From Prochlorococcus sp. MIT 0801 (GTDB lineage Bacteria; Cyanobacteriota; Cyanobacteriia; PCC-6307; Cyanobiaceae), in assembly GCF_000757865.1 (NCBI RefSeq), contig NZ_CP007754.1, positions 1,290,001 to 1,322,000 of the forward strand: DNA of 32,000 nucleotides, in the 5' to 3' direction. Position numbers and translations under genes: made by a program. The notes under the pieces were generated by a model that saw only the letters and a program-made list of their open reading frames with translations, did no database searches and was not told the DNA's origin. Of this stretch, positions 15,585 through 29,626 are shown piece by piece (the stretch's first letter is position 1; the number at the start of each line of letters is the position of its first letter).

Positions 15585-16640
15585 CTAACTCTCAGTTGTT
15601 GCGAGAGAAGCTACTGATCCAACAACACGACGGAAATCAAAGCCCATGGCTCTAAGAGCATGCCAAATATGACCTTGAATAAAGAAAAATCCAAAGTAAT
15701 AATGAACATTTGACAATGCAGCTCTAGTTGTATGGCCTAAAAACGCAGTGCTATCTGAGACATCTCCCGTGTCTACCCAATAAGGAGAAATTCCAAATTT
15801 CAAAGCTAAAGGCTCTCCATACCAGTCAATTGGATAAACAGTTGTATTTTGTGCGCACCAGAATGCAGCAACAATTGCCATCCAACCAATACCAGCAAGA
15901 GACCAGGAAAGAACGGCTTCTGCTGAAAGCAATCCTTTACCTTTGAACTCAGTGTATTCGCCTAGTTGTTTTGTAGCGATGTGCCATGCACCACCACTTA
16001 TTTGAACGAATGCTAAAAATGCATGACCGCTCATTACTTCTTCAAGGCTGTCAATGGTAAGGAAGTCGAACTGATGCCCGTAAACCATTCCAAAGTCACC
16101 ATATCCAGGGAAGATTGTTCTGATTTCACCTATGGCTGGATCATAAATTCCATGCCATCTTGCCCACTCTACGAACCAAATATTTGCAACCCCAAAGAAA
16201 ATCAAGTGATGTCCAAGAATGAATGTCAAATTATCTGGGTTGTCCCATTCAAGTTTGAATTTCTTGGTGGTAGGAATTGGACCATCTTTCAAGTCCGGAT
16301 CAAATAAGAGTGAATGAGCTAATCCAGCTGTTCCATATACAGCTGAAAAAATCAAATGGAAAATAGCAATTGTTGCTACACCAGCTCCGGTCCATACTCC
16401 AGCTTCATCAAAGCCGAGGCCAAGAGATGCTAGATGAGCAAGAAAAATGGAACTTTGATGTCCCATTGGTATTTCTGGGTTGTAGCGAGCAAGCTCCCAA
16501 AGGGTACTTCCACCAGCTGCAAAGCAAATCAGGCCTGTGTGTCCGATATGTGACCCTATGAATCGACCAGCGCGATTGGTCACCACAGAATTGCCAACCC
16601 ACCACCCGTAGGTGACGTCTGGGTTTCCGTAGGTCTGCAT
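15585..16640 (-). CDS. pcb: Prochlorophyte chlorophyll a/b-binding antenna protein (Pcb, CP43/IsiA family), paralogue 1
   Basis: 351 aa. N-terminus MQTYGNPDVTYGWWVGNS and six-helix CP43-like core without the large lumenal loop. C-terminus HYYFGFFFIQGHIWHALRAMGFDF. Confidence 0.95.
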   Translation of the reverse strand: MQTYGNPDVTYGWWVGNSVVTNRAGRFIGSHIGHTGLICFAAGGSTLWELARYNPEIPMGHQSSIFLAHLASLGLGFDEAGVWTGAGVATIAIFHLIFSAVYGTAGLAHSLLFDPDLKDGPIPTTKKFKLEWDNPDNLTFILGHHLIFFGVANIWFVEWARWHGIYDPAIGEIRTIFPGYGDFGMVYGHQFDFLTIDSLEEVMSGHAFLAFVQISGGAWHIATKQLGEYTEFKGKGLLSAEAVLSWSLAGIGWMAIVAAFWCAQNTTVYPIDWYGEPLALKFGISPYWVDTGDVSDSTAFLGHTTRAALSNVHYYFGFFFIQGHIWHALRAMGFDFRRVVGSVASLATTES

Positions 16641-16670
16641 AATTAAGGAATTAAAGTCGAAATTTTGGCT

Positions 16671-16720
16671 ACCTTACACTTTTTGGAATTGTTTTTACCA
16701 GAATAGTTAGAGGTCTTTAT
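16671..16720 (-). promoter_or_regulatory. pcb paralogue 1 promoter region: -10-like TGTAAGGT plus conserved upstream box
   Basis: On the gene strand: ATAAAGACCTCTAACTATTC, 24 nt, TAAGGT, about 30-nt leader, ATG. The same geometry occurs upstream of paralogues 2, 3 and 4. Confidence 0.4.
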
Positions 16721-16818
16721 AGGTCTCTACCATTTTTTACCAAAAAAGCTCTATTTATTTAAAAATAGACAAAAAAAATACCCCCCATAATAGAGGGATA
16801 TTTTTGTTTTTTTTTAAT

Positions 16819-17931
16819 CTATCTTGGAGCTCTTCCATTGAAACCAGCGCCTTCAACCCTGACTGTTGCCCCTTCAGTATTACCAATTGCTTCGGAAACC
16901 TTCTTGAAGTCAAATCCTAACGCACGTAAAGCATGCCAGAAATGACCCTGTAAGAAGAAAAATCCAAAGTAATAATGAACATTAACTAAAGCAGCCCTAG
17001 TTGTGTGACCAAAGAAAGCTGTTATGCCAGTGCTATCTGCTGTATCAATCCAATATGGAGCAACTGAGAACTGTAACTTCAAAGGCTCACCAAACCACTC
17101 AATTGGATAAACGGTTGTATTGGTAGCAGCCCAGAATGCAGCAACAATTGCCATCCAACCTATACCTGCAAGAGACCATGAAAGGACTGCCTCTGCAGAA
17201 AGCAATTCAGCTCCTTTGTACTTACTCCATTCACCAAGTCTCTTGTTTTCCCATTGAGTTGAACCTGCAACCATATGAATAGTTGCGCCGGTTAATTCTG
17301 CAAAAGCAAGAAATGCATGACCACCCATTACATCTTCGAGACTATCAATCCCGATGAAATCAAATTGACGATTCCATATCATCGTCAAATCAAGATTGTA
17401 ATTGACCTGTCTTACCGCACCAATAGCTGGATCATATATGCCGTGGATTCTTGCCCATTCAACAAAGGCTATGCAAGCCATTCCAAAGAAGAATAAATGA
17501 TGGCCCAGGATAAACGTCTGATTATCTGGATTATTCCATTCCAATTTAAACTTTCTAGCTCTTGGAACCTCACTATCTGCAACATCAGCTTCAAAATAAA
17601 CTGCATGCAATAAAGCACCACCTCCGTAAACCATTGACAAAACCAAGTGAACAATGGCTACGGCTGCTACACCAACACCAGTCCAAGCTCCAGCCTCGTC
17701 AAAACCTACGCCAAAAGCGGCAAGATGCCCCAAGAATAAGGAGCTTTGATGCCCCATGGGGATCTCTGGATTGTAGCGAGCAAGTTCCCAAAGGGTACTT
17801 CCTCCAGCCGCGAATGCGATCAAGCCTGTATGCCCAATATGGGAGGCTATGAATCGACCAGAACGACTTGTGACCACAGAATTACCAGCCCACCACTCGT
17901 AAGTAACGTCTGGATTTCCATAGCTCTGCAT
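16819..17931 (-). CDS. pcb: Pcb/IsiA-like antenna protein, divergent paralogue 2 (370 aa)
   Basis: Same family N- and C-terminal signatures. Has an internal insertion (HMVAGSTQWENKRLGEW) and a 20+ aa C-terminal tail ending NGRAPR. Composition is visibly less AT-rich than the neighbours. Confidence 0.95.
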   Translation of the reverse strand: MQSYGNPDVTYEWWAGNSVVTSRSGRFIASHIGHTGLIAFAAGGSTLWELARYNPEIPMGHQSSLFLGHLAAFGVGFDEAGAWTGVGVAAVAIVHLVLSMVYGGGALLHAVYFEADVADSEVPRARKFKLEWNNPDNQTFILGHHLFFFGMACIAFVEWARIHGIYDPAIGAVRQVNYNLDLTMIWNRQFDFIGIDSLEDVMGGHAFLAFAELTGATIHMVAGSTQWENKRLGEWSKYKGAELLSAEAVLSWSLAGIGWMAIVAAFWAATNTTVYPIEWFGEPLKLQFSVAPYWIDTADSTGITAFFGHTTRAALVNVHYYFGFFFLQGHFWHALRALGFDFKKVSEAIGNTEGATVRVEGAGFNGRAPR

Positions 17932-17963
17932 AATGTCTAAGCGAATCAGGGAAATATGCGTGC

Positions 17964-18013
17964 AGATTACACTCTGTTCAATTGATATGTGCAGAATAGT
18001 TAAAGGTCGTTAT
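17964..18013 (-). promoter_or_regulatory. pcb paralogue 2 promoter region: TGTAATCT plus conserved box
   Basis: On the gene strand: ATAACGACCTTTAACTATTC, then TGCACA... (24 nt total), then TAATCT, 33-40 nt before the ATG. Confidence 0.4.
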
Positions 18014-18107
18014 GTTTGAAATTCTTTTTTCCGGATAATTAAGAGAGAAGCCAAGTCTTATTAGCTTTATCAAATCAATGCTTCGAAAGAATTTATTCCA
18101 CCAAGTG

Positions 18108-18144
18108 AAAAAAAACAAAAAAAAGAGAGGATTAAATCCTCTCT
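18108..18144 (-). terminator. Intrinsic terminator of pcb paralogue 3
   Basis: Stem agagaggat / atcctctct, followed on the minus strand by a long T-run. Lies 25 nt beyond the stop. Confidence 0.7.
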
Positions 18145-18168
18145 ATAAAAAAACAAGTTTTTAATTGT

Positions 18169-19218
18169 TTATTCGTAAAGCTGAGCAGGAAGAGGCTCCT
18201 TAAGAATTCTCTTAAAATCAAATCCCATAGCTCTTAAAGCATGCCATAGATGTCCTTGAAGGAAGAAAAATCCAAAGTAATAATGAACATTTGCTAGAGC
18301 CGCCCTAGTCGTATGACCAAAGAAAGCTGGACCTCCTGAAAGATCAACACTATCTATCCAATAAGGAGCAATACCAAACTTCAAGATCAATGCTTCGCCA
18401 TACCAAGCTTCTGGGTAAACGGTTGTGTTCTGTGCACACCAGAAAGCAGCAACAACAGCCATCCAACCAAGACCTGCACAAGAGAAAGAAAGAATTGCTT
18501 CTGCAGAAAGAAGACCAGCTCCTTTGAACTTGGTATATTCACCAACTTGCTTAGTAGCGATATGGAAAGCTCCACCTGTTATTTCCAAGAAAGCCAAGAA
18601 AGCATGGCCTCCCAAAACATCTTCAAGACTATCAATAGCCAAGAAATCAAACTGATGGTTCCAAATACTGGTCAAGTTAAGGTTGTACTCAACTTGTCGA
18701 ACAGCTCCTATAGCAGGATCATAAATTCCGTGGATTCTTGCCCATTCAACGAACCAAATACATGCAACACCAAAGAAAAGTAAATGGTGACCAAGTATAA
18801 AAGTCTGATTATCTGGGTTGTCCCACTCAAGTTTGAACTTTCTTGCTTGAGGGACCTCTGAATCTTGCATATCGCCAACGAATAGCACCGAGTGCAATAA
18901 GCCACCCGCTCCATAGACCATGGAAAGAACCAAATGTACGATTGCAATAGAGGCAACTCCTGCCCCTGTCCAAGCACCAGCCTCATCAAAGCCGATACCA
19001 ATTGAAGCTAAATGAGCAAGAAAGATCGAACTCTGATGTCCCATTGGAATCTCAGGGTTGTATCTCGCTAGTTCCCAAAGGGTACTTCCACCTGCTGCAA
19101 AGGCTATCAAGCCAGTATGAGCAATGTGTGCAGCAATGAATTTACCTGATTTGTTTGTAACCCCAGCATTTCCAGCCCACCAACCATAGGTGACATCCGG
19201 GTTTCCGTAGGTCTGCAT
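18169..19218 (-). CDS. pcb: Pcb antenna protein, paralogue 3 (349 aa)
   Basis: MQTYGNPDVTYGWWAGNAGV... HYYFGFFFLQGHLWHALRAMGFDF. CP43/IsiA family. Confidence 0.95.
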   Translation of the reverse strand: MQTYGNPDVTYGWWAGNAGVTNKSGKFIAAHIAHTGLIAFAAGGSTLWELARYNPEIPMGHQSSIFLAHLASIGIGFDEAGAWTGAGVASIAIVHLVLSMVYGAGGLLHSVLFVGDMQDSEVPQARKFKLEWDNPDNQTFILGHHLLFFGVACIWFVEWARIHGIYDPAIGAVRQVEYNLNLTSIWNHQFDFLAIDSLEDVLGGHAFLAFLEITGGAFHIATKQVGEYTKFKGAGLLSAEAILSFSCAGLGWMAVVAAFWCAQNTTVYPEAWYGEALILKFGIAPYWIDSVDLSGGPAFFGHTTRAALANVHYYFGFFFLQGHLWHALRAMGFDFKRILKEPLPAQLYE

Positions 19219-19251
19219 GATTTAAGTTTTTTGGCGTAATACGGTGAGCAC

Positions 19252-19300
19252 ACCTTACAGGCACCTGAATTCAAAAACTACCAATAGTCATAAGGCGTAT
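19252..19300 (-). promoter_or_regulatory. pcb paralogue 3 promoter region: TGTAAGGT plus degenerate conserved box
   Basis: On the gene strand: ATACGCCTTATGACTATTG, 24 nt, TAAGGT, 34-41 nt before the ATG. Confidence 0.35.
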
Positions 19301-19395
19301 AAAGAAGTAGTAAAGTTTTTTTTCTTCAAATTGGCTCAAACCCCAACTAAACTAGGTTTTCATGGAAATACTCAAGAAAAATTTAAATATCAAAA

Positions 19396-19590
19396 ATGAA
19401 ATCTGCTTTACAACTTGAATTACAAGATCTTCATGGACTTCCTTATATAGCAACAATAATTTGGTTTGTTTTGCTTGGAGTTTCTCTTTTAGCTGTGGTT
19501 TTTTATCTTTTTCAGAAAAATTCAGCATCCAAAAGAAAAGTTGATGAGGTTTCTCCCACTGAGAAGAAATCTCGTGCAAAAGGGTTTTAA
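19396..19590 (+). CDS. Small single-TM protein (64 aa) inside the pcb array
   Basis: TM helix LPYIATIIWFVLLGVSLLAVVFYLF followed by a Lys-rich tail. An antisense ORF of similar size also exists. Confidence 0.35.
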   Translation: MKSALQLELQDLHGLPYIATIIWFVLLGVSLLAVVFYLFQKNSASKRKVDEVSPTEKKSRAKGF

Positions 19591-19705
19591 ATGACTAAGA
19601 AAATTTTGTTTTTCAATGTTAGTTCTCAAATTAATGTAATATCCTCAAACACGGGTTTGGCATAGTGGCCACCTGGGTTAACTATAAAAACAATTTTTTT
19701 ATTCA

Positions 19706-19912
19706 ATGATTGATTTTTCTCACCTTCTTGATTTTGCCACTCAGCTTCCACACCCATCAGATATTGGTTTAATCAAACCATCCGGTGGATTTAATATAGC
19801 CGCAGCTCTTTGTGGACTTGGAGCAGTTTTTGGAGCGTCTCAATTCTTCTACTATTCTGATGATTCAAAAAGGATCGATCCTTGGGCTAAGCCTGACAAC
19901 TACAAAAACTAA
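19706..19912 (+). CDS. Small hypothetical protein (68 aa) with one Gly/Ala-rich hydrophobic segment
   Basis: ATG ORF, segment FNIAAALCGLGAVFGASQFFYY. Followed by a strong hairpin terminator. Confidence 0.4.
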   Translation: MIDFSHLLDFATQLPHPSDIGLIKPSGGFNIAAALCGLGAVFGASQFFYYSDDSKRIDPWAKPDNYKN

Positions 19913-19944
19913 AGAAAGTTAAAACCTCTTTAATTTTTTTCAAT

Positions 19945-19982
19945 AAAAAAAGAGTCTCGTCAAAAGACGAGACTCTTTTTTA
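19945..19982. terminator. Bidirectional intrinsic terminator (small ORF / pcb paralogue 4)
   Basis: 11-bp perfect stem agagtctcgtc / gacgagactct with loop aaaa, flanked by an A-run and a T-run. The flanking genes are convergent. Confidence 0.8.
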
Positions 19983-20001
19983 TGCTGAAAGACTCAGAAA
20001 A

Positions 20002-21090
20002 TCAATCAGTGAGAGTAACTCTTGCTCCATCAAGATTACTAATTGCATCAGTAACCTTTTTGAAATCAAAGCCTAGAGCACGTATTGCATGCCAAAGGTG
20101 TCCTTGAATAAAGAAGAAACCAAGATAGTAATGAACATTCGCAAGCCAAGCTCTTGAAGTATGACCACTAACGACACCAGTCATATCAGCAGTATCAATC
20201 CAATATGGAGAGATTCCAAACTTAAGAGCTAATGTTTCTCCGTACCAAGCCTCTGGATAAACAGTTGTATTGGTTGCACACCAGAAAGCGGCAATAATTG
20301 CCATCCAACCAATACCAGCAAGAGACCAGGAAAGAACGGCTTCAGCAGAAAGAATATTCTTCCCTTTGAATTCTGTGTATTCTCCTACCTGCTTAGTTGC
20401 GATATGGAAAGCACCACCTGTGATCTCAACAAATGCTAAGAATGCATGACCACCCATAACATCCTCCAGACTATCAATAGCCAAGAAATCAAACTGATGA
20501 TTCCAAATGTTGGTCAAGTTTAAGTTGTACTCAACTTGTCGAACAGCTCCTATTGCAGGATCGTAAATCCCATGTATTCGAGCCCACTCAACAAACCAAA
20601 TACATGCAACACCAAAGAAAATCAAATGGTGACCAAGAATAAAAGTCTGATTATCTGGATTATCCCATTCAAGCTTGTATCTTGCTGCCTGACGATGTTC
20701 AGGACGATCATCAGCAAACAAACCTGAACTATTTTGGGTGTCTTCGCTAAAAATCAGTGAGTGCAATAGACCTGCACCCGCATAAACCATTGAACAAATC
20801 AGATGGAATACTCCGATAAAAGCAATTGATGTTCCGTCGAATACTGTTCCAGTTGGATCAAATCCAATACCAATAGAAGCAAGGTGTGGGATGCTCACCA
20901 TTCCTTGGTGTCCCATTGGAATATCTGGGTTGTATCTAGCGAGCTCCCAAAGTGTGTTGGCACCAGCTGCGAAACAAATCAATCCTGTATGAGCAACATG
21001 CGAGCCAATAAATCGGCTTGACTTATTTGTTACGACAGAATTACCAACCCACCACCCGTAGGTGACGTCTGGGTTTCCGTAGGACTGCAT
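20002..21090 (-). CDS. pcb: Pcb antenna protein, paralogue 4 (362 aa)
   Basis: MQSYGNPDVTYGWWVGNS..., with an extra loop segment (SEDTQNSSGLFADDRPEHRQAARY) and a C-terminal tail. Confidence 0.95.
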   Translation of the reverse strand: MQSYGNPDVTYGWWVGNSVVTNKSSRFIGSHVAHTGLICFAAGANTLWELARYNPDIPMGHQGMVSIPHLASIGIGFDPTGTVFDGTSIAFIGVFHLICSMVYAGAGLLHSLIFSEDTQNSSGLFADDRPEHRQAARYKLEWDNPDNQTFILGHHLIFFGVACIWFVEWARIHGIYDPAIGAVRQVEYNLNLTNIWNHQFDFLAIDSLEDVMGGHAFLAFVEITGGAFHIATKQVGEYTEFKGKNILSAEAVLSWSLAGIGWMAIIAAFWCATNTTVYPEAWYGETLALKFGISPYWIDTADMTGVVSGHTSRAWLANVHYYLGFFFIQGHLWHAIRALGFDFKKVTDAISNLDGARVTLTD

Positions 21091-21121
21091 AATTGAGGAA
21101 ATTGAAGTCGAAATTCGACCT

Positions 21122-21171
21122 ACCTTACATTTAGTGCAATAAATTTGCTTGAAATCGTAAAAGGTCTTTAT
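21122..21171 (-). promoter_or_regulatory. pcb paralogue 4 promoter region: TGTAAGGT plus conserved box
   Basis: On the gene strand: ATAAAGACCTTTTACGATTTC, 23 nt, TAAGGT. The leader is nearly identical to that of paralogue 1 (aattRaggaa(a)ttRaagtcgaaatt). Confidence 0.4.
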
Positions 21172-21282
21172 TTAATGCACAAAAATAATCAATAGAAGAG
21201 CTTTAATTATTCATTGATTTTGCTTACAAAACTAGTATCAAAAGGGATTTGAGAATCCTAGTTAAATAGCAGTCAATATTTT

Positions 21283-21315
21283 AATAAAAAAAGCCCCGCA
21301 AAAATTACGGGGCTT
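21283..21315 (-). terminator. Intrinsic terminator of pcb paralogue 5
   Basis: GC-rich stem aagccccg / cggggctt, followed on the minus strand by a T-run. Lies 28 nt beyond the stop. Confidence 0.8.
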
Positions 21316-21342
21316 CAGAGATTATCCAATCAATTGAATTAG

Positions 21343-22407
21343 TTAGTCATTAAGAGTGATTTGCGCCCTATCTAAACCAGCTACAGCATTTGTAACTCTC
21401 CTAAAGTCAAAGCCTAATGCACGAATAGCGTGCCATAAATGACCTTGTAAGAAGAAGAATCCAAAATAATAATGGACATTTGTTAAAGCAGCTCTTGTGG
21501 TGTGACCTGCTAGTGCAGTGCTCTCACTTACCTCTACAGTATCGATCCAATAGGGAGAAATTCCAAATTTCAAAGCCAAAGGCTCTCCAAACCAAGGTTC
21601 AGGATAAACAGTTGTATTTGTTGCGCACCAGAATGCTGCGACAATCGCCATCCAACCAATACCTGCCAATGAGAAAGATAAAACAGCCTCGGCAGAGAGG
21701 ATCCCAGCTCCTTTGAATTCTGTGTATTCTCCTACCTGCTTAGTTGCGATATGGAAAGCACCACCAGTTATCTCAACAAATGCTAAAAACGCATGGCCGC
21801 CCAAAACATCTTCAAGATTATCTATAGCTAAGAAATCAAACTGATGGTTCCAAATATTGGTCAAATTAAGGTTGTACTCAACTTGTCGAACAGCTCCTAT
21901 TGCTGGGTCATAAATTCCGTGAATTCTGGCCCATTCAACAAAAGCAATACAAGCAACCCCAAAGAAAATAAGATGGTGACCCAAAATAAATGTCAAATTA
22001 TCGGGATTGTCCCATTCAAGCTTGAATTTTTGAGTAGTAGGTCCTGGCCCATCAGCCAAATCCCCATCAAAGAGCAGAGAGTGAGAAAGAGCTCCTCCTG
22101 CATAAACAAGAGAAGCAATAATATGGACAATTGCTACTGAAGCAACATTCGCTCCAGTCCAAACACCTGCATCATCAAATCCAATTCCAATAGATGCAAG
22201 ATGAGCGAGAAAGATAGAGCTTTGGTGCCCCATGGCTATAGAAGGATCAAACCTAGCTAGCTCCCAAAGAGTGCTAGCTCCTGCAGCAAATGAAATTAGG
22301 CCAGTATGACCAGCATGGGCTGCAATGAACTTTCCAGCGCGGTTAGTAACCCTTGAATTACCAGCCCACCACCCGTAGGTGACATCTGGATTTCCATAGG
22401 TCTGCAT
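21343..22407 (-). CDS. pcb: Pcb antenna protein, paralogue 5 (354 aa)
   Basis: MQTYGNPDVTYGWWAGNSRV... HYYFGFFFLQGHLWHAIRALGFDF. Confidence 0.95.
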   Translation of the reverse strand: MQTYGNPDVTYGWWAGNSRVTNRAGKFIAAHAGHTGLISFAAGASTLWELARFDPSIAMGHQSSIFLAHLASIGIGFDDAGVWTGANVASVAIVHIIASLVYAGGALSHSLLFDGDLADGPGPTTQKFKLEWDNPDNLTFILGHHLIFFGVACIAFVEWARIHGIYDPAIGAVRQVEYNLNLTNIWNHQFDFLAIDNLEDVLGGHAFLAFVEITGGAFHIATKQVGEYTEFKGAGILSAEAVLSFSLAGIGWMAIVAAFWCATNTTVYPEPWFGEPLALKFGISPYWIDTVEVSESTALAGHTTRAALTNVHYYFGFFFLQGHLWHAIRALGFDFRRVTNAVAGLDRAQITLND

Positions 22408-22859
22408 ATAAAACAGGGGGAATATATATTTTACAGACTACAAGTTAGTAGACTTTTTAACTATAAAAAACCAAAACAAACAAGCATTGATTAATAATCA
22501 AACATCATTTTATACTCGTGTATAAGTAAAACTTAACAGTAAGATTAGTGACTAATTATACAAAAAAGTCACTATAAGTTTAGTGTCTCAAAATACATAA
22601 ATAGATAAGTTCTACTTAACTATTAATACCGTTTTTACTGTTGGAAGAGCGCAAGCGCCCTTCCAATGTTGACAGAGAAACGAACTTCGACTTCAATTCC
22701 TATCAACAGAGACTGTCATAACAAAAATCAATCATGAGTGTGAGAACAAATAATTCATTTCATATATCCAAAACAAATTGATTGGCAATGGAGTTTTATA
22801 AATCAAAGAAAATTCTTAGGGATATACGTACCAATACTAATGAAAATCTCTTCTAAGGT

Positions 22860-23129
22860 TTGTCCAGTTTCTTGGCAATACAAATCGTACTTAAAAGGCT
22901 AACTTCAGCTGAGGTTGATCGCATTATCGAAATGGCCTGGGAGGACAGGACACCTTTTGATGCGATCGAATTTCAATTCAATCTCAAAGAGAAAGAAGTT
23001 ATTCATTTAATGAGGTCTAATTTAAAAACATCTTCTTTTAAAATGTGGAGAAAGAGGGTTACTGGAAGGAAACTTAAGCATGGCTTTCCTGACAAGAAGA
23101 CAAGGTTCAAGTCAACCAATCAAAAGTGA
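22860..23129 (+). CDS. DUF2805 / TIGR03643-like small protein
   Basis: Core SAEVDRIIEMAWEDRTPFDAIEFQFNLKEKEVIHLMRSNLKTSSFKMWRKRVTGRKLKH matches my memory of this family. There is no ATG, so the start (TTG 22860 or 22872) is uncertain. Confidence 0.7.
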   Translation: MSSFLAIQIVLKRLTSAEVDRIIEMAWEDRTPFDAIEFQFNLKEKEVIHLMRSNLKTSSFKMWRKRVTGRKLKHGFPDKKTRFKSTNQK

Positions 23130-23257
23130 AATTCAAATTGATAAAAAATTGTCCGATTTGCTTGAGAGATTTTCAATGGAGAAAAAAATGGGCTAAAGAG
23201 TGGGATAAAGTCATTTACTGTTCAGAAAGATGTAGAAGAAGGAAAAATCAAAATTAA
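23126..23257 (+). CDS. DUF2256-like zinc-ribbon micro-protein (43 aa), not in the supplied ORF track
   Basis: My translation is VKFKLIKNCPICLRDFQWRKKWAKEWDKVIYCSERCRRRKNQN. It has CPxC ... CSERC spacing with WRKKW. The GTG start overlaps the upstream stop as GTGA. Confidence 0.6.
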   Translation: MKFKLIKNCPICLRDFQWRKKWAKEWDKVIYCSERCRRRKNQN

Positions 23258-23357
23258 CCATGTTGAGTTTTTTCGCACTCAAAAAAGAATCCAGTTATTT
23301 TATAAAATTAACTTCTTAAATTTTTTTGAGAAGTAATAAATTTATTAATCGACTAAA

Positions 23358-24848
23358 TTGAGAAAGATTTTCCTGATTTTTCCAAATCAATTATTCAAAA
23401 TAAAAAAACAATTTAGTGACGTTAGTCATATTGCTCTGATCCAAGATAGCTTATTTTTTGGTTGTGATTCTCAATGGCAACAAAAGTTTCATTGTCAAAA
23501 AATAATTTTCCACAAAGCTACTATGGACTCTTACGAAGAAGATCTCAGATCTCAGGGGTTCAATGTAATTTATTTAAAACATCAAAGAGAAAGCAGAACA
23601 GAAGATAATCTCAATTATCTCTCAGAAAAAGGTTTTAATTATTTCATCACTTATGAAGCGTTTGATTGGTCGCTAGAAAAAAGAATTAAGGATTTCTCTT
23701 TGAAAAAGAATATAAAGTTGAAAATAAGAAAAAATGATATGTTTTTAACTTGTCAAGATATATCTGAAGAAATACTTAATCAAAAAAAAATTTATGGAAT
23801 GCAGAAATTTTATAAGATTCAAAGAAAAAGCCTAAATATACTTATCGAAAAAGATGGTTCGCCAACAGGGGGGACATGGAGTTTTGACAAAATGAATAGA
23901 AAGAAGCTTCCAAATTCAATTGAAGTTCCTAGAATAACAACTATAAAAACAAGCAGATTACTAGATAAAGCTAAGAAAGAAGTTTCTATAAATTATAAAG
24001 ATTATTACGGGAGCACAGAAAACTTTAATTATCCATTGTCTCATAAAGATGCTGAAGAATGGTTAGATAATTTTTTAATTGAAAGATTTAATTTATTTGG
24101 AGATTATGAAGATGCAATACATTCAAATCATAGGACACTTTGGCATAGTGTTCTTTCTCCATTAATTAATTCCGGATTACTTACTCCGAGACAAATAATA
24201 GATAAATCATGGGAGTTTTATCAATCAAACAATATTGGGATTAATTCCTATGAAGGATTTGTTAGACAAATTATTGGCTGGCGTGAATTTATCCTATTAA
24301 TGTATAAACGAAATAGTTTAGAACTAAGAAATGGAAATTTCTGGGATTTTGAGGACAAACCAATACCCTTAAGTTTTTACACTGGTCAAACAGGAATAAG
24401 GCCTTTAGATGACTCAATAAAAAATATTTTAGAGACAGGGTATGCTCATCATATAGAAAGACTAATGATAGTTGGAAATTTAATGCTTCTATGCAGATTT
24501 CATCCAAATAAAGTATACAAATGGTTTATGGAATTATTTATAGATTCATATGATTGGGTTATGGTTCCAAATGTTTATGGAATGAGTCAATTTTCAGATG
24601 GAGGACTATTTACAACCAAACCATATATTTCTGGCTCTAATTATATTCGAAAAATGTCTAACTATAAATCTGAAGATTGGTGCTCAACTTGGGATAGTCT
24701 TTTTTGGACATTTATAGATGATTATAAAAATAAGTTCAAGGACCAATATCGTTTGTCAATGATTTTAAGGAATTTAGAAAAAATGGACCCTAATAAAAAA
24801 ATGAACCACAGACGTAATGCTAATGAATTCTTGTCTAAACTAAATTAA
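23358..24848 (+). CDS. Cryptochrome/photolyase-family protein of the COG3046 / bacterial (6-4) photolyase (FeS-BCP-like) type
   Basis: TTG start, 496 aa. Motifs SVLSPLINSGLLTPRQI, GWREF, GYAHHIERLMIVGN, DSYDWVMVPNVYGMSQFSDGG and KPYISGSNYIRKMSNY. Confidence 0.8.
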   Translation: MRKIFLIFPNQLFKIKKQFSDVSHIALIQDSLFFGCDSQWQQKFHCQKIIFHKATMDSYEEDLRSQGFNVIYLKHQRESRTEDNLNYLSEKGFNYFITYEAFDWSLEKRIKDFSLKKNIKLKIRKNDMFLTCQDISEEILNQKKIYGMQKFYKIQRKSLNILIEKDGSPTGGTWSFDKMNRKKLPNSIEVPRITTIKTSRLLDKAKKEVSINYKDYYGSTENFNYPLSHKDAEEWLDNFLIERFNLFGDYEDAIHSNHRTLWHSVLSPLINSGLLTPRQIIDKSWEFYQSNNIGINSYEGFVRQIIGWREFILLMYKRNSLELRNGNFWDFEDKPIPLSFYTGQTGIRPLDDSIKNILETGYAHHIERLMIVGNLMLLCRFHPNKVYKWFMELFIDSYDWVMVPNVYGMSQFSDGGLFTTKPYISGSNYIRKMSNYKSEDWCSTWDSLFWTFIDDYKNKFKDQYRLSMILRNLEKMDPNKKMNHRRNANEFLSKLN

Positions 24849-24973
24849 TAATTTAAACTGAGATATTTAGAACAAAAAAATTTCTATAAACTTTGTCTAG
24901 GTGTTGTTTTTACTCCAGAAGAGCACTCTCGAGAGGAAGTGAATTGAGTATAATAGTGATTTGATTAATTAGA

Positions 24974-25423
24974 GTGAAGCTGAAAATTGGTGATCAGATT
25001 CCTTCATTTTCTCTAAAAGATCAAAAGGGGAATATCAGAACATCAAATAATTTGAAAAAGTCTCTGGTTTTGTTTTTTTACCCGAAAGACGATACACCTG
25101 GTTGCACTGTCGAAGCTTGTGGCTTCCGAGACAAATATGATCTTTTCAAAATTCTAGGTGCTGAGGTATGGGGAATAAGTAATGGTAGTCCTCAAAGTCA
25201 TCTAGGATTTGCAAATAAAAATAAACTTCAGTATCCATTACTTTGCGACCAAAACAATATTCTTAGAAATCAATTTGGAGTACCGAAAAAACTAGGATTC
25301 ATAGAAGGAAGAGTAACTTACATAATAAATTCTGAAGGAGTAATAAAACATATTTTTGAAGACCTTCTAAATGGTCCAGCTCATATAAAAGAAGCTATAA
25401 AAGCATTAAAAAAACTTCAATAA
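24974..25423 (+). CDS. bcp: Peroxiredoxin Bcp / PrxQ
   Basis: GTG start. FFYPKDDTPGCTVEAC carries the peroxidatic and resolving Cys five residues apart. A TATAAT at 24949..24954 lies upstream. Confidence 0.85.
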   Translation: MKLKIGDQIPSFSLKDQKGNIRTSNNLKKSLVLFFYPKDDTPGCTVEACGFRDKYDLFKILGAEVWGISNGSPQSHLGFANKNKLQYPLLCDQNNILRNQFGVPKKLGFIEGRVTYIINSEGVIKHIFEDLLNGPAHIKEAIKALKKLQ

Positions 25424-25439
25424 TAAATTTAATACTCTT

Positions 25440-26555
25440 GTGAATATTTTTGATGAGGCTAATGATTTATTAGATAATTTCATTTTCAATCACCTTAGTT
25501 CATACCATCAACTAAGAAATTACGATTATGGTATCGAAAACAGGACTAATGTCTCTCAAATTTCTAAATATACATCACATAGAATCCTTTACGAATTTGA
25601 CATAATTGAAAAATTAAAAAAGTATGATAAGAAACAAAAGTACACTGATGAAATCCTTTGGAGGATCTATTGGAGGGGTTACCTTGAAAATTACAAATCC
25701 ATATGGTATGAATATATAAATTTCAAAGAAAACTCAAAAAGTTCATACTTAATTAGTTCTGCTATTAATGGTAAGACAGGTATAGATTGCTTTGATAAAT
25801 GGATAGAGGAGCTTAGAGAGAATAACTATTTGCATAATCACGCAAGGATGTGGTTCGCAAGTATATGGATTTTCACTCTAGGACTTCCATGGCAATTAGG
25901 AGCGAGGCTGTTCATGAAACATCTACTAGATGGGGATGCTGCATCGAACACCCTTAGCTGGAGATGGGTGGCTGGTATGCACACAAATAAGAAGCCTTAC
26001 TTAGCATCTAAAGAAAACATCAATAAGTACACAGTTAATCGATTTAGAGATACTCCCATTAGCATTTCGAGCAAAATTAATATCATAAAAGATAGTCAAC
26101 ATCAATCAAATAAACTTCCAGTTCAAAGAAGTTTTCCTAATAGTAATATTCTAATAATATTTGATAATGATATGAATATCATGAACAGATATACGTTATT
26201 TAATTCATACTCAAAGGTTTATATATTGCATAATATAGCCACAAATAATGAATTTGATCTAAGTGAGACCGTGATTCAATTCAAACGAGGTTTAATTGAT
26301 AAAATAAATAAGTTAATCCCAAACTCAGAAGTATTAAAATCAACTGACCTAGGAATTAATTTGTCTGGTCACAGTTTTATTGATGTTATCTACCCAGGAG
26401 TTGGGCATAATCTAGATCTAATAAATAAATTTGCTAATCAAAATCAAATCATTTTTAATTATATATATAGAAAAGAGGACCTTAAATATTGGAATTATGC
26501 AAATTCAGGATTTTACAAATTTAAGACTTCATTTAATAGAATTAATAAGATCTAA
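25440..26555 (+). CDS. Photolyase-like flavoprotein with inverted domain order (FAD-binding helical domain N-terminal, extra alpha/beta-like domain C-terminal)
   Basis: GTG start, 371 aa. Residues about 40-200 carry photolyase C-terminal-domain motifs (ILWRIYWRGY, YLHNHARMWFASIW, LLDGDAASNTLSWRWVAG). No N-terminal photolyase alpha/beta domain precedes them, and about 170 aa follow. Confidence 0.7.
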   Translation: MNIFDEANDLLDNFIFNHLSSYHQLRNYDYGIENRTNVSQISKYTSHRILYEFDIIEKLKKYDKKQKYTDEILWRIYWRGYLENYKSIWYEYINFKENSKSSYLISSAINGKTGIDCFDKWIEELRENNYLHNHARMWFASIWIFTLGLPWQLGARLFMKHLLDGDAASNTLSWRWVAGMHTNKKPYLASKENINKYTVNRFRDTPISISSKINIIKDSQHQSNKLPVQRSFPNSNILIIFDNDMNIMNRYTLFNSYSKVYILHNIATNNEFDLSETVIQFKRGLIDKINKLIPNSEVLKSTDLGINLSGHSFIDVIYPGVGHNLDLINKFANQNQIIFNYIYRKEDLKYWNYANSGFYKFKTSFNRINKI

Positions 26556-26654
26556 AATCTTATTAATTTTATTAAGTCAATACAAACAGATCATCCACGT
26601 CTACCACAATTAAATTAAATCATAATTATAGTAAATAAACATTTTCAAAGGGTT

Positions 26655-27557
26655 ATGGTTAGATTAAATGAAATCAAGATGCAAGACGGAAAAGTATTCT
26701 TAATCACCGGAGCCAATAGTGGTCTTGGCTATGAAACATCAAAATTCCTTTTAGAAAGGGGGGCAACAGTAATCATGTCTTGCAGAGACATGATCAAAGG
26801 AGAGAAAGCCAAACAAGAACTTTTAAAATTTAATTTTTCTGGAAAGATCGAACTAGTTGAATTAGATTTATCCGATTTAATAAACGTTAAAAAATTTGCT
26901 GAATCTATAAAAAATAAATTTGATTACTTAGATGTTTTAATCAATAATGCTGGGATAATGGCTCCACCAAAGACTTTTAGCAAGCAAGGTTTTGAAATAC
27001 AGTTTGCAGTTAATCATCTTGCACATATGTTTTTAACGTTAGAACTATTACCCATGCTTGAAGAAAAAAATAATTCTAGAGTTGTCACAGTAACCTCAGG
27101 TGTCCAATATTTTGGAAAGATTCAGTGGGCGGATTTACAAGGAAATCTTAAATACGATCGTTGGGCTTCCTATGCGCAGAGCAAGCTTGCAAACGTAATG
27201 TTTGGCTTGGAACTTAATTCAAAACTTAAAGAAAGCAATTCAAAAACTTCTTCACTACTAGCTCATCCAGGATTTGCACGAACAAATTTGCAGCCAAAAT
27301 CTGTTGAGGCTAATCAATCATGGCAAGAAGGACTTGCTTACAAGTTGATGGATCCCATGTTTCAAAGCGCGAAAATGGGAGCATTGCCTCAAATAGCAGC
27401 CGCTACATTATCTAACGCTATTGGAGGAGAGCAATATGGACCTAGATTTAACTTTAGAGGGTTCCCAAAAATCTGTAAAAATGCTCCAGAGGCATTAAAT
27501 CAAACTTCAAGAAAAAAATTGTGGGCAATAAGCGAAACGCTAATAAAAGATGTTTGA
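26655..27557 (+). CDS. Short-chain dehydrogenase/reductase (classical SDR)
   Basis: TGANSGLGYE (TGxxxGxG), NNAG, and the catalytic YAQSK (YxxxK). Length is 300 aa. Confidence 0.85.
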   Translation: MVRLNEIKMQDGKVFLITGANSGLGYETSKFLLERGATVIMSCRDMIKGEKAKQELLKFNFSGKIELVELDLSDLINVKKFAESIKNKFDYLDVLINNAGIMAPPKTFSKQGFEIQFAVNHLAHMFLTLELLPMLEEKNNSRVVTVTSGVQYFGKIQWADLQGNLKYDRWASYAQSKLANVMFGLELNSKLKESNSKTSSLLAHPGFARTNLQPKSVEANQSWQEGLAYKLMDPMFQSAKMGALPQIAAATLSNAIGGEQYGPRFNFRGFPKICKNAPEALNQTSRKKLWAISETLIKDV

Positions 27558-27564
27558 GATCCTC

Positions 27565-28158
27565 TCAAAGCAAAGGAAGTAATTCTTCTCCTCTATCACA
27601 TATTTCTTGTTGAGAAGGACATTCTATTTTTCCAGTCCAATGAATTAAGCCTTTTCTAATTGGACAATTACATTTATTCTCACCAGTTAATTCATTGAGT
27701 TCACCACCTGTCCAAGGAGTTGCCTTACCATCAAGCATTATTTCTTTAAATCGATCAGAAAACGACTTACTTAACCTCTCATAAACTTGTACTGACTGAA
27801 GTAAATCATCAAATGCCTTGGATTTATCTTCATAATTTCTTTTTTCTAATTCTTTATCAAAAACACCTCTCATAAATTTTGTACAATTAACTGCTTCCAA
27901 ATTAGTAAATGGTTTTAGCTTTTGACTTAAGTATTCCCTATTAGAAACTATTGATTCAAGAGACAATATCCTTTCTTCTAAAGCCTTAATCTTATCAACA
28001 GAAGACAAATCGGTATTTAGAATATCATTATCAGACAATGACTTTGAAACTAAATCAGTTATGTGTTCGGTCAGACTTTTGCCTGACATAGTCGCCTGTC
28101 GCTTAACTTTAGTCAATAAGTCTTTTGAGATTTTTATATTAAACTGACTTTTAGTCAT
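27565..28158 (-). CDS. Hypothetical protein: N-terminal ribbon-helix-helix-like segment, coiled middle, Cys-rich C-terminus
   Basis: FNIKISKDLLTKVKRQATMSGKSLTEHITDLVSKSL fits the RHH (CopG/Arc) pattern. The C-terminus is NKCNCPIRKGLIHWTGKIECPSQQEICDRG. Divergent from psbA. Confidence 0.55.
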   Translation of the reverse strand: MTKSQFNIKISKDLLTKVKRQATMSGKSLTEHITDLVSKSLSDNDILNTDLSSVDKIKALEERILSLESIVSNREYLSQKLKPFTNLEAVNCTKFMRGVFDKELEKRNYEDKSKAFDDLLQSVQVYERLSKSFSDRFKEIMLDGKATPWTGGELNELTGENKCNCPIRKGLIHWTGKIECPSQQEICDRGEELLPLL

Positions 28159-28266
28159 TTTTCCTCAGTCATGACTGAGCCAATTATAGTGATTTGTTTA
28201 ATAATAGCAAAATAGGAAAAAAGAAAAAGTATTATCCCAACACGAGAATAAGAACCTACTATTTAA

Positions 28267-28308
28267 ACTATTCAAACTATTTCTACTAGTAAAAATAGTT
28301 TGAATAGT
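28267..28308. repeat. Perfect 16-bp inverted repeat with 10-nt loop in the RHH-gene / psbA divergent intergenic region
   Basis: Arm actattcaaactattt (28267..28282) and arm aaatagtttgaatagt (28293..28308). The loop ctactagtaa contains the ACTAGT palindrome. Confidence 0.85.
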
Positions 28309-28543: not shown

Positions 28544-29626
28544 ATGACCACTATTCAGCAGCAGCGTTCTTCGTTGCTCAAAGGTTGGCCACAATTCTGC
28601 GAGTGGGTTACTTCCACCAACAACCGTATCTATGTCGGTTGGTTCGGTGTATTGATGATCCCTTGCCTTCTTGCGGCAACAACTTGTTTCATCGTTGCAT
28701 TTATCGCTGCTCCTCCAGTTGATATCGACGGTATCCGTGAGCCAGTAGCTGGTTCATTCATGTATGGAAACAACATCATTTCTGGTGCTGTTGTTCCTTC
28801 AAGTAACGCTATCGGCCTTCACTTCTACCCAATCTGGGAAGCAGCAACTCTTGATGAGTGGCTATATAACGGCGGCCCTTACCAGCTTGTAATCTTCCAC
28901 TTCCTTATTGGTATCTCTGCATACATGGGACGTCAGTGGGAGCTTTCATACCGTTTAGGTATGCGCCCATGGATCTGTGTTGCTTACTCAGCACCTGTAT
29001 CAGCAGCTTTCGCTGTATTCCTTGTTTACCCATTCGGTCAGGGTTCATTCTCTGATGGTATGCCTCTAGGAATCTCTGGAACATTCAACTTCATGTTCGT
29101 TTTCCAGGCTGAGCACAACATCTTGATGCACCCATTCCATATGGCTGGTGTAGCAGGTATGTTCGGTGGTGCTTTGTTCTCTGCAATGCACGGTTCTTTG
29201 GTTACTTCATCACTTATCCGTGAGACCACAGGACTTGATTCACAGAACTACGGTTACAAGTTTGGACAAGAAGAAGAGACATACAACATCGTTGCAGCTC
29301 ATGGCTACTTCGGTCGTTTGATCTTCCAATATGCAAGCTTCAACAACAGCCGTAGCCTTCACTTCTTCTTGGCTTCATGGCCAGTGATTTGTGTTTGGTT
29401 GACATCTATGGGCATCTGCACCATGGCGTTCAACTTGAACGGTTTCAACTTCAACCAGTCTGTAGTTGATACTTCAGGCAAGGTTGTACCAACCTGGGGT
29501 GACGTACTTAACCGTGCAAACCTTGGTATGGAAGTAATGCACGAGCGTAATGCTCACAACTTCCCACTTGACCTAGCAGCTGCTGAGTCTACTTCTGTAG
29601 CTCTTGTTGCACCTGCAATCGGTTAA
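28544..29626 (+). CDS. psbA: Photosystem II reaction-centre protein D1
   Basis: 360 aa, unmistakable D1 sequence ([10 protein letters not shown]..., [37 protein letters not shown] plus C-terminal extension). GRQWELS gives Gln at the position-130 equivalent. Confidence 0.98.

Follow-up and report, generated by a model that had tools for sequence, protein, structure and literature searches.

The stretch of DNA analysed here (the window, 32,000 nucleotides of Prochlorococcus sp. MIT 0801, contig NZ_CP007754.1, about 35% G+C) carries, between positions 22860 and 27557, six genes that bring together two photolyase-family enzymes, a peroxiredoxin, a short-chain dehydrogenase/reductase (SDR) and two small proteins assigned to the families DUF2805 and DUF2256. 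An original prediction, made from the sequence, had described them as co-oriented and had named their families, including an inverted photolyase; all six open reading frames (ORFs) indeed lie on the plus strand, and every one of these family calls was confirmed with Pfam and NCBIfam. In gene order they encode a DUF2805/TIGR03643 small protein (22860..23129, 89 amino acids as listed), a DUF2256 zinc-finger protein (23126..23257, 43 amino acids), an Fe-S-free homologue of the prokaryotic (6-4) photolyases of the PromaPL/Phr2 type (23358..24848, 496 amino acids), an atypical 2-Cys peroxiredoxin of the Bcp/PrxQ type (24974..25423, 149 amino acids), an inverted-topology photolyase of the NewPHL/SPL/Phr7 type (25440..26555, 371 amino acids) and a classical SDR oxidoreductase of the PRK06197 subfamily (26655..27557, 300 amino acids). 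The first two genes overlap in a GTGA start/stop arrangement (GTG at 23126-23128, TGA at 23127-23129), which the prediction had also pointed out and which recurs in related contigs, while the remaining gaps are, in gene order, 100, 125, 16 and 99 nt long. Because these gaps measure only 16-125 nt and a scan of positions 22300-28300 found no terminator-like site, hence none within the cluster, transcription probably proceeds in one or two units that together cover all six genes. The promoter and terminator scans as such were uninformative, the former returning fewer promoter-like sites than shuffled sequence did. No match to the LitR/MerR, LOV or ECF sigma/anti-sigma families was found in the seven ORFs scanned, namely the six genes and a convergent ORF of 197 amino acids that follows them.

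The larger photolyase matches the DPRP family (PF04244, E = 6.3e-52) over residues 6-225 and aligns end to end with entries of the PDB (9hnk, 5e-80; PhrB, 4dja, 1.5e-68; CryB, 3zxs, 1.4e-56). In the alignment with Agrobacterium PhrB, the catalytic pair His365/His366 corresponds to H364/H365 and the Mg2+-binding residues D179 and D254 to D177 and D252, while the equivalents of W342 and Y391 are Y and F. None of the four cysteine positions of the PhrB [4Fe-4S] cluster is kept: P349 stands in place of C350, a deletion has removed C438 and C441, and a Ser takes the place of C454, with a Cys one position earlier. With PromaPL/Phr2, PhrB and Rhodobacter CryB the protein thus has in common the DPRP N-terminal domain, the His-His pair and the Mg2+ aspartates, and with PhrB and CryB homology over the full length. 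On these residues it belongs to the published Fe-S-free subgroup typified by PromaPL and is not an FeS-BCP in the strict sense. We had considered the loss of the cysteines as a possible new feature and rejected this, since the subgroup and a Prochlorococcus member of it are already in the literature. For that member, PromaPL of the HLI strain MED4, a Mg2+-dependent repair of (6-4) lesions was reported, though weakly shown; later papers name this type of enzyme Phr2, and one of them doubts that the Fe-S-free Phr2 has (6-4) activity. The window protein is the orthologue from the low-light I (LLI) clade, likened to PromaPL through the published description and the alignments with PhrB and CryB.

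The second photolyase starts with its FAD domain (FAD_binding_7 matches residues 71-188 only) and ends with a C-terminal extension of about 180 residues; it has no match to PF00875, and the NCBIfam photolyase models align to it by their C-terminal halves only. Residues N378, W382 and W384 of the E. coli photolyase correspond to N170, W174 and W176. The protein contains a single Cys and therefore no Fe-S cluster, and it is 80% identical to a P. marinus protein annotated as 'FAD-binding domain-containing protein'. Judged by its architecture, length and active-site residues against the published descriptions, it appears to be a member of the class named NewPHL (Emmerich 2020), SPL subgroup C (Xu 2021) or Phr7 (Haney 2022), which is likewise marked by an N-terminal FAD domain, a C-terminal extension, a length of about 370 residues, the lack of Fe-S cysteines and an active site of the cyclobutane pyrimidine dimer (CPD) type. 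The NewPHL paper lists a Prochlorococcus member, A0A0A2A9H3. CPD repair in single-stranded DNA and the lack of an antenna cofactor were shown for two alphaproteobacterial NewPHL members; the biochemistry of NewPHL/SPL thus comes from alphaproteobacterial subgroup A proteins, whereas the window member is cyanobacterial and known from its sequence. According to the SPL paper, SPL and FeS-BCP genes often lie in one predicted operon, and the window also has an FeS-BCP-family gene near its NewPHL gene; unlike that arrangement, a peroxiredoxin gene stands between the NewPHL and (6-4) photolyase genes. The original prediction had called the two photolyase-like proteins non-canonical and their cluster a candidate for an under-described system; the two proteins themselves are not under-described, as Prochlorococcus members of both classes (PromaPL/Phr2 and NewPHL/SPL/Phr7) have been named or characterised in publications.

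The peroxiredoxin (AhpC-TSA, PF00578, 8.2e-33), whose gene ends 16 nt before the NewPHL gene, has the motif P37-x3-T41-x2-C44 (PxxxTxxC) and a second Cys, C49, five residues later. Its best NCBIfam matches are the thiol peroxidase Bcp and PrxQ, both under the equivalog cut-offs (105 bits vs 140 for E. coli Bcp and 88 vs 260 for Deinococcus PrxQ); by its motifs it is a member of the Bcp/PrxQ family and not a proven equivalog. The SDR (adh_short, 2.2e-29) exceeds the cut-off of NF004846 (289.9 bits vs 268, 2.1e-86) and has the motifs TGxxxGxG (18-25) and NNAG (97-100) as well as the catalytic residues S148, Y173 and K177.

The first gene encodes a clear member of the DUF2805 family (TIGR03643, 3.3e-34, 116.9 bits vs a cut-off of 66.55, over model positions 1-69 of 72; PF10985, 3.7e-33, 114.1 bits vs 22.5). 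Its start is uncertain: the TTG at 22860 is the first start after the preceding stop, most database homologues are annotated with about eight codons fewer and residue 20 is the first that Pfam matches, so that the true start possibly lies a few codons downstream. Homologues from Bacteroidota, Ignavibacteriota and other cyanobacteria show 55-74% identity to it. The AlphaFold model of the window protein (predicted local distance difference test of about 90 for residues 11-60) has four core helices (16-28, 33-40, 44-54 and 57-68) and, after them, a disordered tail. With a pI of 4.9 the core is acidic; the C-terminal tail, at pI 12, is very basic. A Foldseek search of the PDB gave no significant match, and the top non-significant ones were helix-turn-helix (HTH) proteins, namely sigma region 4, the DeoR DNA-binding domain, TrpR and LsrR. 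Weak matches to an HTH Pfam family were seen in 13 of 81 family members, and a few matched Sigma70_r4 or transposase HTH families. The model suggests an HTH-like helical bundle with a basic Lys/Arg tail. The family comprises 1,718 clusters at 50% identity, the best 150 representatives of which are all stand-alone proteins of 59-178 amino acids; domain fusions, which we examined as a clue to function, were absent from these 150 representatives, and one rare DUF2805-NUDIX architecture is mentioned in the literature. We also looked for phage carriage of DUF2805 and found none. Neither a structure nor functional literature was found for DUF2805, no solved relative was detected at the sequence level for DUF2805 or DUF2256, and the literature that names the two families contained no connection with photolyases that we could find.

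The DUF2256 protein (PF10013, 3.5e-16, 59.5 bits vs a Pfam cut-off of 25) is 98% identical to the NCBI entry 'DUF2256 domain-containing protein [Prochlorococcus marinus]'. It has a pI of 10.1 and the motif CPxC-x19-YCSERC followed by RRRK, with cysteines C9, C12, C32 and C36, of which C12, C32 and C36 are invariant and C9 is present in 8 of 9 homologues. A PDB sequence search gave no match; the best Foldseek match was gyrase-bound YacG (4TMA, template modelling score 0.52-0.56, 24% identity), with a non-significant E of 1.8. The Pfam TRASH clan contains DUF2256 together with DUF329, presumably the YacG family, and zf-FCS. The model suggests a YacG-like zinc finger: the two have in common the small CxxC...(F/Y)CSxRC finger and the clan, and YacG is the top structural match. 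YacG uses the tail after its finger on GyrB. DUF2256 is shorter, ending seven residues past the last Cys and thus apparently without such a tail, and the gyrase link is known only for YacG.

To see how the two small proteins are distributed, we searched one genome per GTDB species with DUF2805 as the anchor, retrieved 581 relatives and kept the best 80 loci, in which ORFs were called, neighbours clustered, the main clusters named by Pfam and NCBIfam and hidden Markov models built from the clusters. A photolyase-family gene lies within 10 kb of DUF2805 in 38 of the 80 loci and within 700 nt in 37. Altogether, 1.35 Mb of DUF2805 flanks hold 96 photolyase-family genes, or 71 per Mb. Picocyanobacterial genomes are reported to carry at most about five such genes. 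We infer an excess of more than tenfold around DUF2805, a figure that sets 71 per Mb against a few per Mb and not against a computed control. The linkage takes at least seven gene orders across four phyla: DUF2805-DUF2256-DPRP in Prochlorococcus; DUF2805-DPRP in Nodularia; DUF2805-NewPHL in five loci of Chitinophagales, Cytophagales and unclassified Bacteroidota; DUF2805 convergent with DPRP in Ignavibacterium; DUF2805 divergent from DUF2256 and a DASH-like gene in Algoriphagus; a cluster of about 15 genes in Flavobacteriales; and, on an Acinetobacter plasmid, DUF2805 convergent with FeS-BCP-DUF2256. In the 25 loci of this sample that also have DUF2256, the latter abuts a photolyase-family gene in the same orientation in 23 cases. 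As a counter-sample against the bias of anchoring on DUF2805, DUF2256 matches on plasmids of 11 genera were inspected, and a photolyase-family gene was found within 3 kb in five (Acinetobacter, Cupriavidus together with the excinuclease Cho, two Sphingomonas species and Vibrio parahaemolyticus, the last also with an SDR, a CRY-DASH and MsrB). In both families, then, some 50% of the copies lie near a photolyase gene, which may be of the DPRP, CRY-DASH, DASH-like or NewPHL class, and the other half do not. The neighbourhood analysis that had been proposed for the two families against the photolyase families therefore did find linkage (38/80, 23/25 and 5/11), and the claim that these genes recur beside photolyases stood, far above chance, for DUF2805 and DUF2256; for the SDR, whose counterparts elsewhere are not orthologous, it holds by analogy only.

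The largest arrangement is that of Flavobacteriales (L028, 3043-16099, and about 20 other loci), with some 15 co-oriented genes: TetR, ABC1 kinase, a flavin-reductase-like gene, an NAD-binding/DUF2867 gene, DUF2256, CRY-DASH, a DPRP photolyase and a DASH-like gene, followed by DUF2805, GTP cyclohydrolase I, an SDR, glutathione peroxidase, TspO, a familyless protein of 155 amino acids and a class I photolyase. No Pfam family matches three of its recurrent proteins, which are about 155, 142 and 74 amino acids long. Like the Prochlorococcus cluster, it combines DUF2805, DUF2256, a DPRP photolyase, a peroxidase and an SDR in one orientation; it differs in being far larger, in its three additional photolyase/cryptochrome genes, in the families of its SDR and peroxidase, in the position of DUF2256 before CRY-DASH rather than DPRP and in the 3-5 kb that separate DUF2805 from DUF2256. 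In seven Flavobacteriales loci that have no photolyase near DUF2805 (L003, L019, L020, L034, L040, L068 and L073), a 2-oxoglutarate/Fe(II) oxygenase gene (2OG-FeII_Oxy_2), which we take to be of the AlkB type, lies 575-1917 nt upstream of DUF2805 on the same strand, a further hint that this family belongs in a DNA-damage context. On plasmids, DUF2256 precedes a photolyase-family gene, the excinuclease Cho and a TIGR01777 oxidoreductase in Cupriavidus (L104), lies 5 nt upstream of an SOS-response-associated peptidase in Thioclava (L109), and follows MsrB and converges on SDR-FeS-BCP-CRY-DASH in V. parahaemolyticus (L107). DUF2805 is found among short unrelated genes resembling a cassette array on two large Vibrio plasmids (L100 and L091) and beside integrase genes on a large Nostoc plasmid (L092), in each case with no adjacent photolyase; the gene is evidently mobile.

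Within Prochlorococcus, the order pcb-DUF2805-DUF2256-DPRP-Bcp-NewPHL-SDR is identical in the complete P. marinus genome CP114784.1, in the single-cell genome of Prochlorococcus sp. AG-402-K04 (L001) and in four further LLI-like contigs, and was kept in every LLI-like relative retrieved; the NewPHL proteins of these relatives are 60-81% identical to that of the window. One LLI-like lineage has an insertion, with TPR genes among others, that separates the SDR gene from the convergent 197-amino-acid ORF, so that the six genes remain together while the flank changes. Phr2 and Phr7 have been reported from all high-light (HL) and LLI Prochlorococcus, and the whole photolyase family to be absent from LLII-LLV, which makes LLI the only low-light clade described as keeping photolyases. 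On this ground, and because homologues of its proteins are annotated as P. marinus, the window was placed in LLI; an exact-sequence look-up of its NewPHL protein returned nothing.

Associations of this kind are also known from proteobacteria. The singlet-oxygen-induced bsaA1-cryB operon of R. capsulatus contains a glutathione peroxidase, CryB and two hypothetical proteins; the sigma-E/ChrR regulon of R. sphaeroides includes phrA, an SDR and folE2; and the class II LitR light regulon of Pseudomonas includes phrB, an SDR, cryB and folE. The cluster resembles these sets, which respond to light or photo-oxidative stress, in that a photolyase or CryB is accompanied by a peroxidase, an SDR and proteins annotated as hypothetical. 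It differs from them in having no cfa/ufaM or folE and a Bcp, not a glutathione peroxidase, and in being known from its genes alone. The two photolyase types, their distribution and the SPL/FeS-BCP linkage are already published, as is the theme of a peroxidase and an SDR in other light regulons; it is the pair DUF2805 and DUF2256 that has been little described, together with the strength and breadth of its linkage to photolyases.

Taken together, these results lead us to favour the view that the six genes form a light/UV damage-repair island that would have been fixed in the LLI (NATL-like) clade of Prochlorococcus. We regard the module as a whole as reasonably probable, and any specific role of the small proteins as much less so. 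As far as residues and motifs allow us to tell, two intact-looking photolyases of complementary published specificity stand together with an active-looking thiol peroxidase, an SDR and two small basic proteins. By comparison with characterised family members, the two photolyases would reverse (6-4) photoproducts and single-strand CPD lesions in blue/UV-A light, Bcp would reduce peroxides with thioredoxin, and the SDR would reduce a photo-oxidation product or handle a cofactor. Their neighbourhoods in other bacteria suggest that DUF2805 and DUF2256 may be photolyase-associated accessory or regulatory factors, which most likely bind nucleic acid and/or the photolyase and so could target, stabilise or regulate photorepair. 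Through translational coupling, DUF2256 would be made in step with the downstream photolyase, and the genes would be expressed together in the light. The interpretation of the cluster as a functional module, as first proposed, thus gains from the linkage of the small proteins and from the proteobacterial regulons that unite photolyase, peroxidase and SDR, and has to be narrowed, as the full cluster is an LLI arrangement.

Several observations weigh against this view. Flavobacteriales dominate the 80-locus sample (36 loci), so that the counts are not phylogenetically independent and the raw numbers overstate independence, and no photolyase gene was found near 6 of the 11 DUF2256 plasmid loci or near about half of the DUF2805 loci. 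The fold matches of both small proteins are non-significant, and an acidic core is atypical for an HTH protein that reads DNA. SDRs are common genes, and different lineages pair their photolyases with SDRs and peroxidases that are not orthologues of one another: the Flavobacteriales cluster has a glutathione peroxidase and a 228-amino-acid SDR in place of Bcp and the window-type SDR, and in Vibrio a 235-amino-acid SDR follows the FeS-BCP gene. As the flavobacterial and Vibrio SDRs are 23-24% identical, the Vibrio and window SDRs 24% identical, and phmmer did not link the window SDR to the flavobacterial family, orthology of the photolyase-linked SDRs was rejected; NCBIfam assigned no specific function to them, and their recurrence, with that of the peroxidases, is at best a functional analogy. 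The full cluster was seen in LLI-type Prochlorococcus only. Contigs of 29-30% G+C, which we read as HL-like, carry a lone NewPHL gene (47% identical) beside unrelated genes. The marine Synechococcus that the original prediction had envisaged as a knock-out host carrying the same cluster was not found; in three marine species the 10 kb around DUF2805 contain no photolyase-family gene, and one Synechococcus has DUF2256 directly after clpP with no photolyase nearby. The full cluster is therefore an LLI and not a general picocyanobacterial arrangement, and since HL-like Prochlorococcus and Synechococcus have these genes at scattered sites, physical linkage is not needed for their function. Finally, our literature search found no expression or protein-interaction data for these genes; in a UV study of PCC9511, phrA (PMM0285) was the sole photolyase gene measured.

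The same dispersal, the lineage-dependent choice of SDR and peroxidase, the reportedly high degree of rearrangement of LLI genomes and the half of the DUF2805/DUF2256 loci that have no photolyase neighbour would all be expected if the six genes were independent and had merely been juxtaposed in the history of a streamlined, rearranged genome, with Bcp, the SDR and the small proteins having no part in photolyase function. We consider this unlikely, since the linkage of the small proteins to photolyases arose or persisted in at least seven gene orders and four phyla, the cluster survives the divergence of LLI lineages while its flanks change, the start/stop overlap and the 16-nt gap point to co-translation, and light and singlet-oxygen regulons that were defined by experiment also contain a peroxidase and an SDR alongside photolyases. 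A second alternative assigns the SDR, and perhaps the small proteins, to the supply of a photolyase cofactor or antenna chromophore, for example in the metabolism of pterins, folate or flavins. In its favour, the gene immediately after DUF2805 in Flavobacteriales is that of GTP cyclohydrolase I, the SDR gene comes next and a flavin-reductase-like gene stands upstream. The light regulons of Pseudomonas and Rhodobacter include folE, folX and folM, and the FolM protein belongs to the SDRs. The window cluster, however, has neither folE nor a flavin-reductase gene, its SDR belongs to the PRK06197 subfamily and is as remote from the Vibrio and flavobacterial SDRs as described above, and NewPHL enzymes are reported to have no antenna cofactor, all of which makes such a role quite improbable.

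Two further alternatives concern the small proteins individually. DUF2805 could be a small transcription regulator of the cluster, maybe the DNA-binding effector of a light sensor of the photolyase/cryptochrome family. Its helical model, the HTH proteins that make up its top non-significant fold matches and the weak HTH matches in 13 of 81 members agree with this, as does its place as the first gene of the cluster, 3' of a highly conserved intergenic block, and there is a precedent for a sensor with a small effector in a short LOV protein that acts through class II LitR. Yet it has no sensor domain, its helical core is acidic, many copies lie far from photolyases, such as those in the cassette-array-like Vibrio plasmid loci, and a palindrome that precedes the two photolyase genes is not kept in relatives. 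An identity of 55-74% across phyla is also unusual for an operator-specific regulator; such conservation fits a universal partner, which might be DNA, the photolyase fold or the transcription machinery, better than a lineage-specific operator. A regulator of the cluster is thus conceivable, and we hold it as a tentative option. For DUF2256, the model of YacG invites the proposal that it binds gyrase or another DNA-processing enzyme and restrains supercoiling or replication during photorepair. The common CPxC...(F/Y)CSxRC motif, the TRASH clan and the structural match to the YacG-gyrase complex speak for it; some copies lie beside Cho or the SOS-response-associated peptidase, and UV has been reported to delay chromosome replication in Prochlorococcus. 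Against it stand the non-significant Foldseek score, the mere 43 residues with apparently no tail for a contact with GyrB, the published attribution of the replication delay to repression of dnaA, and the tight translational coupling to photolyase genes, which points to the photolyase as the partner. We rate the YacG-like role as very unlikely.

The view of a light/UV damage-repair island can be carried further, namely that DUF2805 and DUF2256 are a dedicated partner pair of the photolyase/cryptochrome family across phyla, binding the enzymes and/or damaged DNA. Such a pair could link photorepair with transcription or with the topology and replication of DNA, and DUF2256 would act on gyrase much as YacG does. 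This extension is speculative and, in our estimate, rather doubtful. Its consequences would be considerable, as photolyases are textbook single-protein repair enzymes that have long been treated as acting alone: a dedicated pair would amount to previously unrecognised subunits or regulators of the family, and small proteins that serve as partners or regulators would open the question of how bacterial photorepair is targeted or controlled. Should the small proteins instead have nothing to do with photorepair, the region would be a common group of stress genes whose annotation already exists. The cluster shows how genes for DNA photorepair and for the detoxification of peroxides and carbonyls are packed side by side in a streamlined phototroph, and the retention of photolyases in LLI fits the light shocks that these cells meet during mixing.

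The photorepair cluster is embedded in a neighbourhood of light-harvesting and photosystem genes. Five tandem pcb genes (15585-22407, minus strand), encoding chlorophyll a/b-binding proteins of the PF00421 type, lie directly upstream, and psbA (28544-29626) lies directly downstream; the same flanks occur in P. marinus CP114784.1. Between the SDR gene and psbA, the convergent ORF of 197 amino acids (27565-28158, minus strand) ends 7 nt from the SDR gene. It has no Pfam or NCBIfam family, has a Cys-rich C-terminus (C163, C165, C180 and C187) and is kept in LLI relatives; because TPR genes have been inserted between it and the cluster in one lineage, it probably does not belong to the cluster.

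The spacer between the pcb genes, which end at 22407, and DUF2805 contains a conserved structured element (22640..22745, strand not assigned) composed of two stem-loops and an invariant tract. A GC-rich 12-bp hairpin (22640-22667), six stem pairs of which show compensatory changes, is followed by a second, invariant stem-loop (22668-22707) and then by the invariant tract TGTCATAACAAAAATCA... The mean column identity of the element is 86% across eight LLI lineages, in which the flanking proteins are 60-80% identical. No Rfam family matched the element, the intergenic region upstream of DUF2805 or any other part of the window. Mismatches that read C-A on the plus strand become G-U pairs on the minus strand. 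This suggests an RNA of the latter strand, which could be a pcb leader or a small RNA; the element may or may not belong to the control region of the cluster.

Two shorter motifs lie inside the cluster. The palindrome TAATAAATTTAWTA occurs at 23334-23347, 24 nt before the start of the DPRP gene, and at 25421-25434, 19 nt before that of the NewPHL gene, with a one-mismatch copy at 26561-26574, upstream of the SDR gene; seven matches were found, compared with 0.31 expected in shuffles. It was dropped as a candidate operator on account of its absence from the orthologous intergenic regions of two related loci (L081 and L001). In the spacer between the DPRP and Bcp genes (24849-24973), the block GTCTAGGTGNTGTTNTTAC is kept in the window and in the same two loci amid variable AT-rich sequence, and could be an internal promoter or a processing site.

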